DNA of 64,000 nucleotides from Escherichia coli (lineage in GTDB: Bacteria > Pseudomonadota > Gammaproteobacteria > Enterobacterales > Enterobacteriaceae): assembly GCF_003334815.1 (NCBI RefSeq), contig NZ_QOWO01000002.1. The stretch is one strand, 5' to 3'. The notes beneath the pieces are model-generated. The model was not told the origin of the DNA, searched no databases, and saw only the letters and a program-made list of their open reading frames with translations. Positions within the stretch are counted from its first letter, which is position 1, and each line of letters opens with the position of its first letter. Made by a program: the position numbers and the translations under genes. Positions 26,769 through 58,142 of the stretch are shown here, in pieces.

Positions 26769-27530
<762 letters not shown>

Positions 27531-27586: not shown

Positions 27587-27658
27587 TTTTGCAACTCCTT
27601 GATTTTTCGAGATGCGGCAAAAACGTGATGCACGATTTATAGGGCAATACCCTGAAGA

Positions 27659-27688
27659 TGCACCATTCTGGGGCACCAATCTGGTGCG
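27659..27688 (-). promoter_or_regulatory. Tandem overlapping NtrC (NRI) enhancer sites for glnHp2
   Basis: TGCACCATTCTGGGGCACCAATCTGGTGCG: two TGCACC-N-GGTGC-like dyads ~100 nt upstream of the sigma54 promoter. Confidence 0.7.
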
Positions 27689-27845
27689 CTAAAATTGTGC
27701 ACTCAACACAGTGATTATTTAGCGTAAAACCTGATGAAAAAACAATCTTTATGTAACGATTGTGTGATGATGTGGATACAAAAAATTTACTTAATCAGCT
27801 GGAGATAGCAGATGGATGCACTAAATAAGTGCGTTGAGGTGGGCT

Positions 27846-27879
27846 GCAAAACAAAACGGCCTCCTGTCAGGAAGCCGCT
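27846..27879 (-). terminator. Intrinsic terminator after dps
   Basis: Hairpin CGGCCTCCTG/CAGGAAGCCG followed on reverse strand by TTTTGTTTTG; 40 nt downstream of dps stop. Confidence 0.7.
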
Positions 27880-27918
27880 TTTATCGGGTACTAAAGTTCT
27901 GCACCATCAGCGATGGAT

Positions 27919-28566
<648 letters not shown>

Positions 28567-28720
28567 TTAGATATATTGATAAGAACAATTCTTATTTATC
28601 TGCTCGCCAGGAATTTTCGGAATAAATATGCTTTTGCATAATTCGATATATAAAGACGGTGTAGAGGAAAAGTAGCGAGAAATTCTGCATGGTTATGCAT
28701 AACCATGCAGAAATGTAAAT

Positions 28721-29608
28721 TTAATTAATGTCTAATTCTTTTATTTTGCTCTCTTTGCGTACTGTCAGCGTAGACCCCATTGAAGCGGCGATGATAGCGC
28801 CGAGCGCCAGTAGCTGTATGGGTGTCAGTGTTTCTCCGAGGAAAATCATCCCGGAAACGGCAGCCAGCGCCGGTTCCATGCTCATCAGCGTACCAAATGT
28901 CCGTGTTGGCAAACGGGTGAGGGCAATCATTTCCAGCGAATAAGGCAGAGCGGTCGAGAGAATAGCGACAGCCAGACCCAATGGAATAACCGACCAGTGC
29001 CAGAGTGCTTCACCAGCCTGAAGCGCTCCAATTGGCACGAAAATTAACGCTGCAATCAACGAACCAATTGCCACCGTCGCAGGGCCATGTTCCGCTCCTG
29101 CGCGTTGCCCACTTAAAATGTAAATAGCCCAACAAGCCCCGGCCCCCAGTGCCAGCGCACAGCCGGTTAAATCGACATGGGAAACGTCTTGCCCCAGCGG
29201 TAGCAGGAACCACAGACCAAGAACCGCCAGCACAACCCAGACGAAATCTACCGGGCGACGAGAAGAGAACAGCGCCACCGCCAGTGGTCCGGTGAACTCC
29301 AGCGCCACCGCAATACCCAGCGGTACTGTCTGAATAGAAAGATAAAAAAGATAATTCATCCCACCCAGCGAAACGCCGTAAAACAACAGCGGTAACCGTT
29401 GCTCTTTGGCAAAGCGCAGTCGCCATGGCTTAAAGAACGCGATGAGGATCAGCGTTCCTAATGCCAGACGCAGCGCAGTGACACCCGGTGCGCCCACCAG
29501 AGGAAAAAGTGACTTAGCTAACGAGGCTCCACCCTGAATAGACGCCATGGCAACGAGCAATATGACTATTGGTAACCAGACCGGCATTTTACGTAATGAA
29601 CCAGGCAT
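28721..29608 (-). CDS. rhtA: Threonine/homoserine exporter RhtA (DMT/EamA family)
   Basis: ORF track 299 aa; start trimmed to MPGSLRKMPV (295 aa); 10-TM hydrophobic profile. Confidence 0.9.
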   Translation of the reverse strand: MPGSLRKMPVWLPIVILLVAMASIQGGASLAKSLFPLVGAPGVTALRLALGTLILIAFFKPWRLRFAKEQRLPLLFYGVSLGGMNYLFYLSIQTVPLGIAVALEFTGPLAVALFSSRRPVDFVWVVLAVLGLWFLLPLGQDVSHVDLTGCALALGAGACWAIYILSGQRAGAEHGPATVAIGSLIAALIFVPIGALQAGEALWHWSVIPLGLAVAILSTALPYSLEMIALTRLPTRTFGTLMSMEPALAAVSGMIFLGETLTPIQLLALGAIIAASMGSTLTVRKESKIKELDIN

Positions 29609-51400: not shown

Positions 51401-52312
51401 ATGCGACTATTTAACTGGCGACGTCAGGCGGTGTTAAACGCCATGCCACTGGTCAAACCTGACCAGGTACGTACACCGTGGCATGAATTCTGGCGACGAT
51501 TTCGCCGTCAGCATATGGCGATGACCGCCGCATTATTCGTTATTTTATTGATTGTGGTGGCCATTTTTGCACGCTGGATCGCTCCCTATGACGCCGAAAA
51601 TTATTTTGATTATGACAATCTGAATAACGGACCTTCTTTGCAGCACTGGTTTGGCGTCGATTCACTGGGGCGTGACATTTTCAGCCGTGTCCTGGTTGGT
51701 GCGCAAATCTCGCTGGCGGCGGGCGTGTTTGCCGTGTTTATCGGTGCGGCGATCGGGACGTTGCTGGGCTTGCTCGCTGGATATTATGAAGGCTGGTGGG
51801 ATCGGCTGATCATGCGCATTTGCGATGTGCTGTTTGCCTTCCCGGGTATTTTACTGGCGATCGCTGTTGTTGCGGTGTTGGGAAGCGGCATTGCTAACGT
51901 GATTATTGCAGTCGCCATTTTTTCCATCCCCGCGTTTGCCCGCCTGGTGCGCGGCAACACGCTGGTGTTGAAACAGCAAACCTTTATTGAGTCAGCACGC
52001 AGTATTGGTGCCAGCGATATGACCGTTTTGTTGCGTCATATCCTGCCTGGGACCGTCTCTTCTATCGTGGTGTTTTTCACCATGCGCATTGGTACCTCGA
52101 TTATCTCTGCCGCCAGCCTCTCATTTCTCGGCCTCGGTGCGCAGCCGCCGACACCAGAGTGGGGAGCAATGCTCAATGAGGCTCGAGCGGATATGGTTAT
52201 CGCGCCGCATGTCGCTGTTTTTCCGGCCCTGGCTATTTTTCTGACCGTACTGGCGTTCAATTTGTTGGGCGATGGTTTACGCGATGCGCTGGATCCGAAA
52301 ATTAAAGGATAG
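51401..52312 (+). CDS. gsiD: Glutathione ABC importer permease GsiD
   Basis: ORF track 303 aa. Confidence 0.9.
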
Positions 52313-52489
52313 TTACGTTTGAATATTGCTTGAAAGGGTAATCACCTCACAGGAAATTATTGCCCTAAGCAAGTGTTGTAACTTTCTGCTGATTTTGTAG
52401 AATCGGGTAATTTGGTTAAAAAGCCGCAGCAAGGGACAATTTTTGCAGCGGCACAGCGTTCAGATAGTTATTTTGTTAAATGTATTAAC

Positions 52490-54838
52490 ATGCTGAGTTT
52501 ATACGAAAAGATAAAGATAAGGCTGATAATTTTATTTTTATTGGCAGCACTGTCATTTATTGGTCTTTTTTTCATCATTAACTATCAACTGGTATCGGAG
52601 CGCGCGGTAAAACGTGCCGATAGCCGCTTTGAACTTATTCAGAAAAACGTTGGCTATTTCTTTAAAGATATTGAACGTTCGGCCCTGACATTAAAGGACT
52701 CACTGTATTTATTAAAAAATACAGAGGAGATTCAACGCGCCGTGATTCTTAAAATGGAAATGATGCCATTTTTAGACTCGGTGGGACTGGTACTTGATGA
52801 TAATAAATATTATCTTTTTTCGCGGAGGGCGAATGATAAAATCGTTGTTTATCATCAGGAACAAGTAAATGGACCGCTTGTCGACGAGTCAGGGCGGGTT
52901 ATTTTTGCCGATTTTAACCCATCGAAACGACCGTGGTCGGTGGCTTCAGATGACTCTAACAACAGCTGGAATCCGGCATACAATTGCTTTGATCGTCCGG
53001 GTAAAAAATGTATCTCTTTTACGCTACACATCAACGGCAAAGATCACGATTTGTTAGCGGTGGATAAAATTCATGTCGATTTAAACTGGCGATATCTGAA
53101 CGAGTATCTTGATCAAATCAGCGCTAATGATGAAGTTCTATTTTTGAAACAAGGCCATGAGATCATTGCCAAGAATCAACTCGCTCGTGAAAAACTGATT
53201 ATTTATAATAGCGAAGGTAATTATAATATTATTGATTCTGTCGATACTGAATATATCGAAAAAACATCAGCGGTGCCAAACAACGCATTATTCGAAATCT
53301 ATTTTTATTATCCTGGCGGTAATTTATTGAACGCATCAGATAAACTTTTTTATCTGCCGTTTGCGTTCATTATTATCGTATTGCTGGTGGTTTATTTAAT
53401 GACCACTCGTGTGTTCCGTCGGCAATTTTCTGAAATGACAGAGCTGGTTAATACGCTGGCGTTTTTGCCTGACTCAACGGATCAAATCGAGGCTCTGAAA
53501 ATTCGTGAAGGCGATGCGAAAGAGATTATCAGCATCAAAAATTCGATCGCGGAAATGAAAGATGCCGAAATTGAACGGTCAAATAAATTGCTCTCACTGA
53601 TCTCTTACGATCAGGAAAGTGGTTTTATTAAAAATATGGCGATTATTGAGTCTAACAATAATCAGTATCTGGCTGTGGGGATCATCAAACTGTGTGGTCT
53701 GGAAGCCGTGGAAGCGGTGTTTGGTGTTGATGAGCGCAATAAAATCGTCAGGAAATTGTGTCAGCGAATTGCCGAGAAATATGCGCAATGCTGCGATATC
53801 GTGACATTCAATGCCGATCTCTATTTACTTCTGTGTCGGGAAAATGTACAGACATTTACCCGTAAAATAGCGATGGTAAACGATTTTGACAGCAGCTTTG
53901 GCTACCGCAATCTGCGCATCCATAAGTCTGCCATTTGTGAACCTTTGCAGGGGGAAAACGCCTGGAGTTACGCAGAAAAACTGAAACTGGCGATTTCCAG
54001 TATCCGTGACCATATGTTCTCAGAGTTTATTTTCTGTGATGACGCGAAACTCAACGAAATAGAAGAGAATATCTGGATTGCGCGTAATATTCGCCATGCA
54101 ATGGAAATTGGCGAACTATTCCTCGTCTATCAACCGATCGTTGATATTAACACCCGCGCCATTCTGGGCGCGGAGGCGTTGTGCCGTTGGGTGTCTGCGG
54201 AGCGGGGGATCATTTCACCGCTGAAGTTCATTACCATTGCTGAAGATATCGGGTTTATCAATGAGCTGGGTTATCAGATTATTAAAACGGCAATGGGTGA
54301 ATTCAGACATTTTAGTCAGCGTGCGTCGCTGAAGGATGATTTCTTACTGCATATTAATGTTTCGCCCTGGCAGTTAAACGAACCACACTTTCATGAGCGT
54401 TTTACCACCATCATGAAAGAAAATGGCCTGAAGGCGAACAGCCTCTGTGTTGAGATCACTGAAACCGTGATCGAGCGAATTAATGAACATTTTTATCTCA
54501 ATATTGAACAACTGCGTAAACAAGGGGTACGGATATCGATTGATGACTTTGGCACCGGTTTGTCAAACCTGAAACGTTTTTATGAAATTAATCCAGACAG
54601 CATAAAGGTGGACTCGCAATTCACCGGCGATATTTTCGGTACTGCGGGAAAAATTGTGCGCATTATTTTCGACCTGGCACGCTATAACCGGATCCCGGTG
54701 ATTGCGGAAGGCGTAGAGAGCGAAGACGTTGCGCGCGAATTAATCAAATTAGGATGTGTTCAGGCTCAGGGGTATCTGTACCAGAAACCCATGCCATTCT
54801 CCGCCTGGGATAAAAGTGGAAAATTAGTAAAAGAGTAG
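52490..54838 (+). CDS. pdeI: c-di-GMP phosphodiesterase PdeI (YliE): periplasmic sensor domain + EAL domain
   Basis: ORF track 808 aa; start trimmed to [10 protein letters not shown] (782 aa); EAL motif (GAEALCRW); AT-rich. Confidence 0.85.
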
Positions 54839-54845
54839 TTTACGT

Positions 54846-56174
54846 ATGTCCAGAATCAATAAGTTCGTACTTACAGTCAGTCTGCTGATTTTTATCATGA
54901 TTTCAGCAGTTGCCTGCGGGATCTACACTCAAATGGTAAAGGAACGGGTGTATAGCCTGAAACAGTCCGTTATTGATACTGCTTTTGCGGTGGCAAATAT
55001 TGCTGAATATCGGCGTAGCGTGGCAATTGATCTTATCAACACGCTAAATCCCACGGAGGAACAGCTGTTGGTTGGTTTGCGCACAGCTTACGCCGACTCG
55101 GTTTCCCCCTCTTATTTGTACGATGTCGGTCCTTATCTGATTTCCAGTGACGAATGTATTCAGGTAAAGGAGTTCGAGAAAAATTATTGTGCAGATATTA
55201 TGCAGGTTGTGAAGTATCGACATGTCAAAAATACAGGGTTTATCTCTTTTGACGGTAAAACCTTCGTCTATTACCTCTATCCGGTAACTCACAATCGTAG
55301 TCTGATATTTTTGCTTGGTCTGGAGCGTTTTTCTTTACTGTCAAAATCGCTGGCGATGGACAGCGAGAACCTGATGTTCTCTCTATTTAAGAACGGTAAA
55401 CCGGTGACCGGTGATGAATATAATGCTAAAAACGCCATCTTCACCGTTTCGGAAGCGATGGAGCACTTCGCCTATTTGCCGACCGGATTGTATGTATTTG
55501 CGTATAAAAAAGATGTTTATTTGCGGGTTTGTACATTGATTATTTTCTTTGCCGCATTGGTGGCAGTGATATCGGGTGCCAGTTGCCTCTATCTGGTACG
55601 CAGAGTGATTAATCGTGGTATTGTGGAGAAAGAAGCCATCATTAATAACCATTTTGAACGCGTACTGGATGGCGGGCTTTTCTTTTCGGCTGCCGATGTC
55701 AAAAAACTCTACAGTATGTATAACTCGGCGTTCCTGGACGACCTGACCAAAGCAATGGGCAGAAAATCCTTTGACGAAGATTTAAAAGCGCTGCCGGAAA
55801 AAGGCGGTTATTTGTGCCTGTTTGACGTCGATAAATTCAAAAACATTAACGACACCTTCGGTCATTTGCTGGGCGATGAAGTGTTGATGAAAGTGGTGAA
55901 AATCCTTAAATCACAGATCCCGGTAGATAAAGGTAAAGTCTACCGCTTCGGCGGTGACGAATTTGCGGTGATTTATACGGGTGGAACGCTGGAAGAGTTG
56001 CTATCGATTCTAAAAGAAATCGTTCATTTCCAGGTGGGAAGCATTAATTTAAGTACCAGTATCGGTGTAGCACATTCAAATGAATGTCCTACCGTCGAAC
56101 GCTTGAAAATGCTGGCGGATGAGCGGCTGTATAAGAGTAAGAAAAACGGCAGGGCACAGATTAGCTGGCAGTAA
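54846..56174 (+). CDS. dgcI: Diguanylate cyclase DgcI (YliF): periplasmic domain + GGDEF domain
   Basis: ORF track 442 aa; GGDEF motif ([10 protein letters not shown]); two TM segments; AT-rich. Confidence 0.9.
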
Positions 56175-56220
56175 TCATTATTCGCAGGCCGGACAAATGA
56201 TTTTGCCCGGCCTGAATTAA

Positions 56221-57546
56221 TTAAACCCGGCTACCCCACAAATCGTACTCATCGGCGTGCTCGACTTTCACACGCAGGATATCACCCGGCTTAACGTTGG
56301 TTTCACCATTGAGATAAACCGCGCCGTCGATTTCCGGTGCATCTGCCATGCTGCGACCAATCGCGCCTTCTTCGTCCACTTCGTCGATAATCACCAGAAT
56401 TTCACGGCCCACTTTCTCTTGCAGGCGCTCGGCGGAAATCTGCTGCTGCAGCTGCATGAAACGGTTCCAGCGTTCTTCTTTAACTTCTTCCGGAACCTGG
56501 TCAGGCAGGGCATTGGCGTCTGCACCTTCAACCGGGCTGTATTTAAAGCAGCCAACGCGATCCAGACGCGCTTCTTTCAGGAAGTCGAGTAGCATCTGGA
56601 AATCTTCTTCTGTCTCGCCAGGGAAGCCGACAATAAAGGTTGAGCGTAGGGTCAGTTCCGGGCAGATTTCGCGCCACTGTTTGATGCGCGCCAGTTGGCG
56701 ATCTACAGAACCCGGACGCTTCATCAGTTTGAGAATGCGCGGGCTGGCGTGCTGCAACGGAATGTCCAGATACGGCAGGATTTTGCCTTCTGCCATCAGT
56801 GGGATGACGTCGTCCACATGCGGATAAGGGTAAACGTAGTGCAGACGTGTCCAGATCCCCAGTTTCGATAACTGTTCGCACAGGCTGACCATGCTGGTTT
56901 TTACCGGCTCGCCGTTGTGGAAGCCAGTACGATGTTTAACATCAACGCCATAGGCGGAAGTATCCTGCGAGATCACCAGAATCTCTTTAACGCCCGCATC
57001 TACCAGACGTTTCGCTTCACTTAACACTTCGCCAATCGGACGGCTCACCAGGTCGCCGCGCATAGACGGAATAATGCAGAAGGTGCAGCGGTGATTACAG
57101 CCTTCAGAAATTTTCAGATAGGCATAATGACGCGGCGTCAGTTTCACACCTTGTTCTGGCACCAGGCTCAGGAATGGGTTGTGTTTCGGTTTTGGCACGT
57201 AGTGATGAACGTGCTCCAGAACCTGCTCATAGCTATGAGGCCCGGTGATTTCCAGCACTTTCGGGTGGACTTCGCGGATCTGATCTTCTTTTGCCCCCAG
57301 ACAACCGGTCACAATAACCTTGCCGTTTTCATTCAACGCTTCACCAATGGCTTCCAGTGATTCTTGTACCGCGCTGTCAATAAAGCCGCAGGTGTTGACG
57401 ATCACCATGTCCGCATCGTCATAGCTCGGTACCACGTCATAACCTTCAGTGCGGAGTTCGGTGAGAATACGCTCTGAATCAACAAGGTTTTTCGGACAGC
57501 CAAGGGAAACAAAGCCGATTTTCGGCTGGGGAGTTACTTTGCTCAT
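56221..57546 (-). CDS. rimO: Ribosomal protein S12 methylthiotransferase RimO (radical SAM)
   Basis: ORF track 441 aa; CxxxCxxC (CNHRCTFC), TRAM domain. Confidence 0.95.
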
Positions 57547-57758: not shown

Positions 57759-58142
57759 ATGTTCGTTGACAGACAGCGAATCGATCTGCTGAACCGGTTG
57801 ATCGACGCACGCGTTGACCTCGCCGCATACGTGCAACTGAGGAAGGCAAAAGGATACATGTCCGTCAGCGAAAGCAATCATCTACGAGATAACTTTTTTA
57901 AACTGAATCGCGAACTGCACGATAAATCGCTGCGGTTGAATCTTCATCTGGATCAGGAAGAGTGGAGTGCTCTTCATCATGCTGAAGAAGCATTAGCGAC
58001 AGCCGCAGTATGTTTGATGAGTGGGCACCATGATTGCCCGACTGTTATTACCGTCAACGCCGATAAGCTTGAAAATTGTCTGATGAGCTTAACGCTGAGT
58101 ATCCAGAGCCTGCAGAAGCACGCCATGCTTGAGAAGGCCTGA
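57759..58142 (+). CDS. bssR: Biofilm regulator BssR (YliH)
   Basis: ORF track 138 aa; start trimmed to MFVDRQRIDL (127 aa). Confidence 0.85.
   Translation: MFVDRQRIDLLNRLIDARVDLAAYVQLRKAKGYMSVSESNHLRDNFFKLNRELHDKSLRLNLHLDQEEWSALHHAEEALATAAVCLMSGHHDCPTVITVNADKLENCLMSLTLSIQSLQKHAMLEKA

Follow-up and report, generated by a model that had tools for sequence, protein, structure and literature searches.

The pdeI-dgcI pair of Escherichia coli: an AT-rich cassette of likely horizontal origin at the gsiD/rimO junction that encodes a plausible ligand-gated c-di-GMP switch

Introduction

In Escherichia coli, DgcE/PdeR/DgcM, and DgcC/PdeK at the cellulose synthase, are paired cyclase/phosphodiesterase modules of local c-di-GMP signalling. 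A further precedent is given by the CSS-domain phosphodiesterases of E. coli, such as PdeC, in which the formation of a periplasmic disulfide controls activity. Here we analysed a 64-kb stretch of E. coli DNA (referred to below as the window) in which a phosphodiesterase gene and a cyclase gene lie side by side. The locus is identical to that of PdeI (YliE, b0833) and DgcI (YliF, b0834) of E. coli K-12 in sequence, in neighbours and in the Pfam architectures of both proteins. The two genes are pdeI and dgcI, a pair already known from the E. coli core genome, and they form a 3.9-kb AT-rich cassette at the convergent gsiD/rimO junction. Its genes, several of its phenotypes and its bcs association are already in print; although ordinary as a discovery, the locus is a textbook-listed yet poorly understood part of the c-di-GMP network of E. 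coli.

Results

Locus and gene calls

Window positions 52490-54838 correspond to pdeI (yliE) and 54846-56174 to dgcI (yliF), with 100% DNA identity to K-12 derivatives, and the neighbours are those of K-12, with gsiABCD upstream and rimO, bssR and yliI downstream. The start of pdeI was taken as ATG 52490, on the basis of RefSeq and the N-terminal membrane anchor, rather than as TTG 52412 in the ORF list. The K-12 match and the Pfam assignments show that the first-pass annotation, which had been made from the sequence alone, named both genes correctly. Its further statements that the EAL and GGDEF motifs are intact and that both proteins carry large periplasmic domains also hold, as LGAEALCRW and the GGDEF-containing string were found in the translations and two hydrophobic segments in each protein flank ~245 aa in PdeI and ~190 aa in DgcI. 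The features of the locus are listed below.

52313..52489, + strand: gsiD-pdeI intergenic region; left end of the insert, with a sigma70-like promoter candidate within it
52490..54838, + strand: pdeI (yliE), 782 aa; TM1, CHASE9 double-Cache-like sensor, TM2, helical linker, degenerate GGDEF-like domain, EAL domain
52598..53332, + strand: PdeI periplasmic sensor, residues ~37-281; CHASE9 at 36-151; modelled as a double-Cache domain
53642..54019, + strand: predicted degenerate GGDEF-like domain of PdeI, residues ~385-510; NADLY at the GGDEF position
54086..54793, + strand: PdeI EAL domain, residues 533-768; Pfam E 2e-69
54839..54845, + strand: 7-nt gap from the stop of pdeI to the start of dgcI
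54846..56174, + strand: dgcI (yliF), 442 aa; TM1, GAPES2 sensor, TM2, helical linker, GGDEF domain
56185..56214, no strand: GC-rich hairpin CAGGCCGG...CCGGCCTG in the gap where dgcI and rimO converge; bounds the insert on the right

Base composition and the insertion site

Because the pair had been described as visibly more AT-rich than its neighbours and of older horizontal origin, we compared it with the 41 remaining ORFs of the 64-kb window that encode 200 aa or more. The GC content of pdeI (0.416) and dgcI (0.435) lies well past chance for the window (0.532 ± 0.028; z = -4.2 and -3.5), GC3 is likewise low (0.451 and 0.497 versus 0.592 ± 0.046; z = -3.1 and -2.1), and on the 1-kb scale just three stretches of the window fall under 45% GC, positions 51901-56300 being the largest. 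The distance in relative synonymous codon usage from the window pool was not outlying (z = -0.6 for pdeI and -0.7 for dgcI), but this distance is confounded by gene length, so that GC and GC3 are the measures to rely on. Thus the pair is distinct from its neighbours in GC and GC3 and not in relative synonymous codon usage and, since its GC content does differ, the claim of an AT-rich, foreign segment survives.

Low GC could also arise, with no foreign origin, from the amino acid composition of membrane or sensor proteins or from local mutational bias. In line with this explanation, much of the GC deficit lies at codon positions 1 and 2 (GC1 of 0.49 versus ~0.60 and GC2 of 0.31 versus ~0.41), residues I, K, N, F and Y are abundant, and the codon usage distance is unremarkable. 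However, the 2-3 sd deficit at GC3, the normal GC content of the adjoining membrane-protein genes gsiC and gsiD, and the 33-36% GC of paralogous cassettes within unrelated plasmid or chromosomal contexts of 50-60% GC all speak against it, and it is contradicted by the empty site in sister genera. We consider it scarcely credible.

In Citrobacter, Enterobacter and Mangrovibacter, the gsiD-rimO gap measures 44-107 nt and the site is empty. Among the genera examined, the pair was found at gsiD/rimO only in Escherichia, where the site is filled in every member examined, and E. albertii and E. fergusonii carry syntenic orthologues that are still AT-rich. The hairpin at 56185..56214 has an equally placed counterpart where the site is empty in Citrobacter werkmanii and Enterobacter spp., and it probably goes back to the ancestral gsiD/rimO junction, as a bidirectional terminator or a REP-like element; the span 52313-56174 that the first-pass annotation had delimited agrees almost exactly with the inserted segment. 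Together, the empty site in sister genera, the AT-rich Escherichia orthologues and the even more AT-rich mobile paralogues (see below) bear out the proposed older acquisition, and a horizontal origin of pdeI-dgcI is strongly supported by these sequence comparisons. The locus thereby offers a clean, datable insertion, with the site empty in sister genera and filled in Escherichia: the AT-rich cassette would have entered the convergent junction in the common ancestor of Escherichia and would since then have been kept under purifying selection. Of 5426 genomes, >99% retain the pair, which occurs in three Escherichia species and has dN/dS values of 0.05-0.08.

Gene arrangement and transcription

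A PdeI-type gene is followed directly by a DgcI-type gene in all of the independent loci examined (10/10); in six copies the spacing was measured, at -11 to +9 nt. As the two genes of the window are 7 nt apart, a spacing that implies co-transcription, pdeI and dgcI almost certainly form one predicted transcription unit. The terminator scan returned no terminator-like site at their junction. Upstream of pdeI, a sigma70-like promoter candidate lies at 52376-52403 (TTGTAA-16-TAGAAT, 9/12 consensus matches), although promoter and terminator scans across the region gave no enrichment over shuffles. The block ATTTTGTAGAATC that contains the candidate does not vary between E. coli, E. albertii and E. 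fergusonii, whereas the coding DNA of E. fergusonii is ~70% identical, and a native 250-bp promoter fragment drives PdeI fusions (PMC11651652). Both genes are induced at 37 °C compared with 23 °C (PMC12890032). An RpoN gSELEX peak published at K-12 position 874,568 corresponds to window position ~54,855; a sigma54 promoter at the pdeI/dgcI junction was considered and rejected, as the sequence there holds no convincing TGGCAC-N5-TTGC and just a weak GG-N10-GC at 54752.

Mobile relatives

Diverged copies of the pair, with 34-43% protein identity and 33-36% GC, are found on plasmids and in E. ruysiae. In the relatives L005, L008, L012/L013, L094 and L095 the pair lies directly upstream of bcsA-bcsB(-bcsC); in L006 and L011 it has no bcs genes immediately downstream, and in L006, a plasmid locus free of bcs genes, it adjoins sugar-utilisation genes. 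No bcs genes lie beside the pair in the window, where the convergent rimO begins 46 nt after dgcI. Thus a phosphodiesterase and a cyclase have been kept as one cassette through very deep divergence, often before mobile cellulose-synthase genes. The first-pass annotation is silent on this association, on how tightly the two gene families are linked and on the GGDEF-like domain of PdeI described below.

Domains of DgcI

Pfam places GAPES2 (PF17156) at residues 26-229 of DgcI (E 2.3e-143, whole model length) and GGDEF at residues 295-437 (E 2e-24), with the motif at 55950-55964. The GG[DE]EF active site is intact, as are the residues that bind metal and GTP. The RxxD inhibitory site is absent five residues upstream of the motif, where the positions read VDKG, and its absence is also tabulated in PMC3484386; DgcI is therefore predicted to be a complete GGDEF cyclase without the product-inhibition site. 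The structure model of its sensor is double-Cache-like and contains an invariant Cys pair, C104/C115. Although the sensors of both PdeI and DgcI are modelled with the double-Cache ligand-binding fold that is typical of receptors for small molecules, BLASTP detected no similarity between the two (E 0.82), and this dissimilarity means that a signal shared by both proteins is not implied.

Domains of PdeI

The sensor of PdeI matches CHASE9 (PF17153) at residues 36-151 over the whole model length (E 2.3e-62). Pfam returned no dCache_1 match at E ≤ 10; when the PdeI family profile was compared with the PDB, the only matches to the sensor, at E 0.18 and 0.73, were both Cache chemoreceptor domains. 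Residues [F/Y]142, R147, W149, Y164 and D197 and the Cys pair C166/C174 are invariant in the family ([F/Y]142 conservatively so), and the first five resemble the AA_motif Y-x4-R-x-W...Y...D, with PctA-like spacing, in an alignment that is weak. Compared with PctA, McpU, CqsR and PctD, dCache_1 receptors for amino acids and amines, the PdeI sensor shows 9-15% identity. Compared with the dCache_1AA motif as defined by Gumerov et al. 2022 (PMC8915833), the chromosomal PdeI clade has Phe in place of the first Tyr and Ser or Asn in place of the Tyr after Trp, and PdeI has the invariant C166/C174 between the motif halves. We propose the amino-acid-sensor-like motif as a new lead to a candidate ligand class, and conjecture from the invariant cysteines that PdeI may be under redox control.

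After TM2, Pfam gave no match to the HAMP domain that a 2025 preprint draws for YliE at this place; the PdeI model has helices at residues 312-369 (pLDDT < 55). In the middle region, neither Pfam (E ≤ 10), nor phmmer against the PDB or the BLASTP comparison with a GGDEF-EAL match detected a GGDEF domain, and when the PdeI and DgcI families were compared by hhalign, the result was E 0.41 on an unrelated stretch. Foldseek, by contrast, aligned PdeI over 424-449 columns with the GGDEF-EAL tandems 5m3c, 4rnf and 3pjw, and the order of secondary-structure elements in this region is compatible with a GGDEF domain, in a model with pLDDT < 50 through much of residues 290-520. At the GGDEF position, six family members read NADLY, NSNTY, SSDLY, STETY, SPYKY and NKNKY; they lack the aspartates that bind metal and the N/D residues that contact GTP, and G412 is invariant. 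At the level of the fold and with a low-confidence model, residues ~385-510 would thus be a catalytically dead GGDEF-like domain.

The best PDB match to the EAL domain has E 4e-44. Its catalytic set is complete (E562, R566, N623, E655, E658, D685, D686, K706, E740, E743 and Q760), all of these residues are invariant in the six family members, which share 34-88% identity, and the same residues are tabulated for PdeI in PMC3484386. PdeI is thus predicted to be a catalytically competent EAL phosphodiesterase.

What PdeI does to c-di-GMP

The two proteins had been described as opposing enzymes, a claim that agrees with the intact EAL and GGDEF sets and with N4 phage assays, in which overexpression of PdeI gave the same resistance as that of five other phosphodiesterases (PMC7553319), but not with the report that overexpression of PdeI raises c-di-GMP 11-fold (PMC11651652). 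In the latter study, the level of PdeI in single cells also correlated positively with c-di-GMP, and G412S abolished the effect; this substitution is a suppressor from Reinders et al. 2016, as that work is cited in PMC12890032 and PMC11651652. These three observations favour an eLife 2024 proposal that PdeI is itself a c-di-GMP synthetase by way of a divergent GGDEF domain; the pair would then consist of two cyclases. However, the degenerate GGDEF position with its missing metal- and GTP-contacting residues, the failure of Pfam and profile-profile comparison to recognise a GGDEF domain, the complete and invariant EAL set and the phosphodiesterase-like N4 phenotype all argue against the proposal. 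Further, the overexpression strains retained chromosomal dgcI. We consider a synthetase activity of PdeI very improbable; as a new lead, the rise in c-di-GMP may instead come about through DgcI.

A more elaborate arrangement, which we offer tentatively and hold to be unlikely, is an obligate two-protein sensor in which the dead GGDEF-like domain of PdeI, which contains G412, would govern the EAL domain of PdeI as well as DgcI, with an amino-acid-like or redox input and a dedicated cellulose synthase as the ancestral output. PdeI could then decide whether the pair makes or breaks down c-di-GMP on balance, and its R-x-W...Y...D pocket and Cys pair would respond to an amino-acid-like ligand and/or to the redox state. 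If true, such an arrangement would reconcile lower N4 infection with the 11-fold rise in bulk c-di-GMP. Both leads, the route through DgcI and the amino-acid-sensor-like motif, bear on the contradiction in the literature over PdeI in biofilm persister subpopulations.

Silencing by H-NS

The pair, being AT-rich and by the evidence above horizontally acquired, has the marks of a xenogeneic island, and it could be a largely silent, H-NS-repressed relic that contributes little and whose adjacency reflects just shared ancestry. In addition to the AT-richness, the single-mutant phenotypes in print are weak or depend on conditions: mutants of CFT073 show no motility phenotype (PMC3484386) and no effect on colonisation was seen in vivo (PMC3646849). 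Natural IS1 insertions and one IS1-associated deletion occur, and induction at 37 °C (PMC12890032) is typical of many H-NS targets. Matches to the H-NS 10-mer motif (TCGATAAATT-like, ≤2 mismatches) occur at 1.8 per kb in the island and 1.2 per kb elsewhere, a difference that is uninformative, and we found neither H-NS binding data nor hns-related transcriptome data for yliE/pdeI in the accessible literature. A silent relic is, however, difficult to square with the near-universal retention and low dN/dS given above, with the invariant catalytic residues, and with a gene order and spacing kept between copies that are just 34-43% identical. Further, the pdeI promoter itself is active in a biofilm subpopulation (PMC11651652), and ΔyliE changes colonisation of mixed biofilms in vitro (PMC3646849). 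Overall, we regard the relic explanation as unlikely.

Discussion

Our preferred reading is that pdeI-dgcI is an acquired cassette that has been kept, is expressed as one unit and encodes a sensor-coupled pair of phosphodiesterase and cyclase; we give this account as a whole a probability of roughly 0.75. On the structure models, a ligand-gated c-di-GMP switch, as the first-pass annotation had suggested, is a plausible description of the pair. PdeI and DgcI would both be inner-membrane proteins with a periplasmic ligand-binding domain of the double-Cache type, and we infer that together, as a single unit, they turn small-molecule signals in the periplasm into a local level of c-di-GMP, in which PdeI, as a dedicated phosphodiesterase, would restrain a cyclase free of feedback inhibition. 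Because the mobile relatives head pde-dgc-bcsA-bcsB-bcsC arrays, the ancestral output of the pair was probably a c-di-GMP-activated cellulose synthase. The chromosomal Escherichia pair, with no bcs neighbours, presumably feeds other c-di-GMP targets.

Several known systems resemble the pair in part. The CSS-domain phosphodiesterases and PdeI alike are membrane-bound EAL enzymes with a conserved Cys pair in the periplasmic domain, but the former have a CSS sensor whereas that of PdeI is CHASE9/dCache-like. In DgcE/PdeR/DgcM and DgcC/PdeK, as proposed here for pdeI-dgcI, one particular cyclase and its phosphodiesterase partner serve a single target and not the global pool; the genes of those modules are not known to be adjacent or to be co-inherited as a cassette, whereas those of pdeI-dgcI are both. 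Closest are the YliE/YliF-like pairs on plasmids and islands that adjoin bcsA2-4 cellulose synthase clusters (bioRxiv 10.1101/2025.05.09.653004), which share with the window pair the gene order, tight spacing, domains and AT-richness, as well as invariant catalytic residues and sensor cysteines. That 2025 preprint describes control of cellulose by chromosomal PdeI/DgcI as undemonstrated. K-12 itself is reported to be cellulose-negative. The mobile pairs have 33-36% GC and usually lie directly upstream of bcs genes, whereas the chromosomal pair, at 42-44% GC and without bcs genes, is fixed at gsiD/rimO.

Layout of the pdeI-dgcI locus

By its sequence the window is K-12-like E. coli chromosome. 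Over the segment 52000-56400 the identity to K-12 derivatives is 100%; this segment has matches in all 5426 of the 5426 complete E. coli genomes of the collection and is covered to at least 80% in 5381 of them. The RefSeq annotation of an identical record gives the gene order gsiD, pdeI, dgcI, rimO (on the opposite strand), bssR and yliI, with the following features around the pair:

gsiD, stop at 52312
pdeI, 52490-54838, 782 aa
dgcI, 54846-56174, 442 aa
rimO, 56221-57546, minus strand

About 45 of the 5426 genomes hold less than 80% of the pdeI-dgcI region. IS1 replaces nearly the whole pair in E. coli HCP30S3_I2 (locus L010, 2889-3717), leaving a 3' dgcI fragment, and in strain LD27-1 (hit H1) IS1 is inserted inside the locus.

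The EAL and GGDEF motifs cited by the first-pass annotation were both found in the predicted proteins, and Pfam assigned CHASE9 and EAL domains to PdeI and GAPES2 and GGDEF domains to DgcI, with very strong E-values throughout. Each sensor domain is flanked by two strongly hydrophobic segments (PdeI residues 7-36 and 282-310; DgcI residues 4-31 and 223-252), and therefore both sensors are placed in the periplasm, which bears out the periplasmic domain that had been proposed for each protein. In alignments of six family members, all EAL catalytic residues of PdeI and the GGDEF active site and metal- and GTP-binding residues of DgcI were invariant. The RxxD inhibitory site is absent from DgcI, as also tabulated previously (PMC3484386).

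Horizontal origin of pdeI-dgcI

Full-length PdeI orthologues were found in Escherichia only (E. albertii, 88%; E. marmotae, 92% over a partial sequence; E. fergusonii, 70%), the next matches being to the EAL domain only at ∼30% identity. Further, when 1.84 billion cluster representatives were searched exhaustively by HMMER, with the PdeI sensor region (residues 1-345) as the query, only 36 matches emerged, mostly pieces of Escherichia PdeI. E. fergusonii and E. albertii share the gsiD-pdeI-dgcI-rimO synteny. For other genera, the junction was reached by a RimO scan of the genome collection, with neighbours placed by tblastn. In Citrobacter werkmanii, Enterobacter sp. Bisph1, Enterobacter sp. 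BIGb0383 and Mangrovibacter, the stop-to-stop gap between gsiD and rimO is 44-107 nt, barely more than one GC-rich hairpin, and E. coli has a hairpin at the equivalent position adjoining rimO (56185-56214). Given these empty sites and the hairpin retained by rimO, the insert runs from just past the gsiD stop to ∼56180, essentially the segment 52313-56174 delimited in the first-pass annotation. The horizontal origin suggested there is thus well supported, by the empty site in sister genera and by the restriction of full-length orthologues to Escherichia.

Low GC (39-44%) is kept in three Escherichia species. The dN/dS values relative to E. albertii (pdeI, 0.059; dgcI, 0.046) point to purifying selection on both genes, yet dN (0.063 and 0.031, respectively) is above the 0.001-0.024 of the flanking genes. 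The simplest reading is that acquisition is older than the split of the genus and that the genes have been maintained while evolving faster than their neighbours. Separately, species-specific PCR for E. fergusonii makes use of yliE (pdeI) as its target (PMC5454151), which fits the ∼70% nucleotide identity to the E. coli gene (E. fergusonii locus L003, 10001-12349).

The gsiD/rimO junction appears to be a hot spot for insertions. Superficieibacter electus carries ∼3 kb of unrelated ORFs there (L015, 9448-12286), including a 229-aa ORF that is HEAT-repeat-like by eye, and E. albertii, whose locus is without yliI, has an additional gene for a 237-aa HEAT-repeat protein between dgcI and rimO (L004, 13672-14385). 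In some E. coli strains, the 46-nt dgcI-rimO spacer is interrupted by ∼950 bp encoding a RelE/ParE toxin and an HTH antitoxin (window ∼56175-56220; strain K_EC180, L009 4545-5250, and likewise hits H14 and H19). Beyond rimO, bssR (57759-58142) diverges unusually fast: protein identity to E. coli BssR is 78% for E. fergusonii, whereas for other Enterobacteriaceae (L015-L021) it is 43-74%, against 90-97% for their RimO. On the other side, the moeA-gsiA interval of E. fergusonii is without iaaA (L003, 4346-4559), and the expected place of gsiA has no called gene in the E. albertii strain (L004, 4555-6433), where gsiA may be a pseudogene.

Base composition

The GC content of pdeI (41.6%) and dgcI (43.5%) lies well below the mean of 53.2% (S.D. 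2.8) for the 41 other window ORFs of at least 200 aa (z-scores of -4.2 and -3.5), and third-position GC is also low (45.1 and 49.7% versus 59.2%, S.D. 4.6); the AT-richness noted on first reading is therefore real. The sliding profile falls from ∼53% to 37-44% directly past gsiD and is restored at rimO. The expectation of a compositional outlier held for this profile, whereas in relative synonymous codon usage distance the two genes are no outliers among window genes, so synonymous usage is shifted only moderately. A large share of the deficit falls at codon positions 1 and 2, and the low GC is therefore fixed in the I/K/N/F/Y-rich protein sequence. At 1-kb resolution, three stretches of the 64 kb are below 45% GC, and pdeI-dgcI is by far the longest; the others are 1-1300, spanning the ORF of a 237-aa multi-pass membrane protein (304-1017, 42.6% GC), and 27601-28900, between ORFs 26769-27515 and 28721-29608.

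With respect to the H-NS silencing also suggested in the first-pass annotation, we found no H-NS binding or hns-mutant data for the locus in the accessible literature, and a simple H-NS motif count over the pair was uninformative. The pointers to possible silencing are indirect, namely the AT-richness of the pair and the induction of both genes at 37 °C relative to 23 °C in CFT073 (PMC12890032).

Mobile relatives beside cellulose synthase genes

A tblastn search of plasmids revealed adjacent PdeI-like (38% identity) and DgcI-like (40%) genes, in unchanged order, on many E. coli plasmids. On pHZ13-2, pLR-62-2_1 and pLH13-b-B, there is an 11-nt overlap between the pair, which is followed by IS1 and then bcsA and bcsB. 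A contig of E. ruysiae, with neighbours of chromosomal type, carries five same-strand genes with gaps of 4-112 nt, encoding CHASE9-EAL (782 aa), GAPES2-GGDEF (446 aa), BcsA with a PilZ domain, BcsB and BcsC. Two further, distant relatives from the sensor search have a GAPES2-GGDEF gene directly downstream, one in an integrase/TraI element and one before bcsA-bcsB, and on one plasmid-like contig the pair adjoins raffinose/sucrose genes without bcs genes. Overall, a PdeI-type gene was directly followed by a DgcI-type gene in 10 of 10 independent loci examined. The clades are roughly equidistant (phosphodiesterase, 34-41% identity; cyclase, 37-43%).

The mobile copies have 33-36% GC, below the chromosomal pair, within flanks of 50-60%; this contrast is consistent with an old insertion in the chromosome that has been partly ameliorated. 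GC rises steeply along pde-dgc-bcsA-bcsB-bcsC, with 33, 34, 38, 43 and 58% in E. ruysiae (L008, 6648-18126) and 36, 35, 42, 48 and 58% in pHZ13-2 (L005, 11953-26157), and this gradient suggests that the mobile array is a mosaic whose bcsC end has a history unlike that of the regulatory head. Plasmid cellulose clusters also contain a group II intron reverse transcriptase/maturase gene (ltrA) between bcsB and bcsC (L005 21398-22744; L094 14910-15326; L095 14217-15326) and IS1 copies on the flanks of the pair. GC content, H-NS and the empty site are not among the topics discussed in the text of the preprint on such mobile pairs (bioRxiv 10.1101/2025.05.09.653004).

A putative c-di-GMP switch and a candidate source of c-di-GMP

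The two genes are separated by 7 nt with no terminator at the junction, and the promoter block upstream of pdeI is conserved in three species; this arrangement suggests that they are co-transcribed. A published genomic-SELEX peak for RpoN (sigma54) at K-12 874,568 falls at window ∼54855, the pdeI/dgcI junction (PMC8743547), where we found no convincing -24/-12 consensus and only a weak GG-N10-GC at 54752. We propose that both proteins would reside in the inner membrane and sense periplasmic small molecules, that DgcI, probably free of feedback inhibition, would be restrained by PdeI as its own dedicated phosphodiesterase, and that the ancestral output may have been a c-di-GMP-activated cellulose synthase. 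The ligand-gated c-di-GMP switch envisaged on first reading is a reasonable but unproven interpretation.

PdeI overexpression has been reported to raise c-di-GMP 11-fold, and PdeI was termed a synthetase, in strains that retained dgcI (PMC11651652); in a Dub-seq study, PdeI overexpression blocked phage N4, as did other phosphodiesterases (PMC7553319). AlphaFold2 models from shallow alignments were of good quality in the sensor and catalytic domains but of poor quality across PdeI residues 290-520. Foldseek aligned PdeI over ∼425-450 columns to GGDEF-EAL tandem structures, which supports a GGDEF-like fold for its middle region, although neither Pfam nor profile comparison recognised this region as GGDEF. 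K-12 PdeI has NADLY at the motif position, which is variable in the family; the catalytic aspartates are missing and, judged from these residues, the region cannot be a canonical cyclase. Because this predicted GGDEF-like domain lacks all catalytic residues, a c-di-GMP rise through a partner cyclase is more plausible, and DgcI is the obvious candidate because its gene begins 7 nt after pdeI and has been inherited together with it in each of the copies examined.

Published phenotypes are modest. BolA increases expression of both genes (PMC5605933). In vitro, but not in mice, ΔyliE increased mixed-biofilm colonisation by an enteroaggregative strain (PMC3646849). ΔyliF increased bladder-cell adherence and was complemented by a foreign cyclase (PMC3484386), and a screen for mutants with altered expression of type 1 fimbriae yielded, among others, a transposon insertion in yliE (PMC6727828).

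Sensor domains and comparison with known sensors

The locus has been described before, as have its domain families, several phenotypes and the association with mobile cellulose operons. The present analysis contributes the proof of an empty site, the strict linkage of the cassette, a predicted dCache fold for both sensors, which share no sequence similarity, and two testable leads, namely a candidate ligand class for the PdeI sensor and DgcI as the probable cyclase behind the c-di-GMP rise ascribed to PdeI. Each sensor has an invariant periplasmic Cys pair (PdeI C166/C174; DgcI C104/C115), which could form a structural or regulatory disulfide.

Against all PDB sequences, the PdeI sensor profile gave two matches only, both weak (E-values of 0.18 and 0.73) and both to Cache chemoreceptor domains; they align on the RPW motif and, in one case, additionally on D197. 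The residues [F/Y]142-x4-R147-x-W149, Y164 and D197 are invariant in the PdeI family, and we hypothesise that its ligand may be amino-acid-like: this set parallels the Y121/R126/W128/Y144/D173 motif described for amino acid binding by dCache_1AA sensors (PMC8915833).
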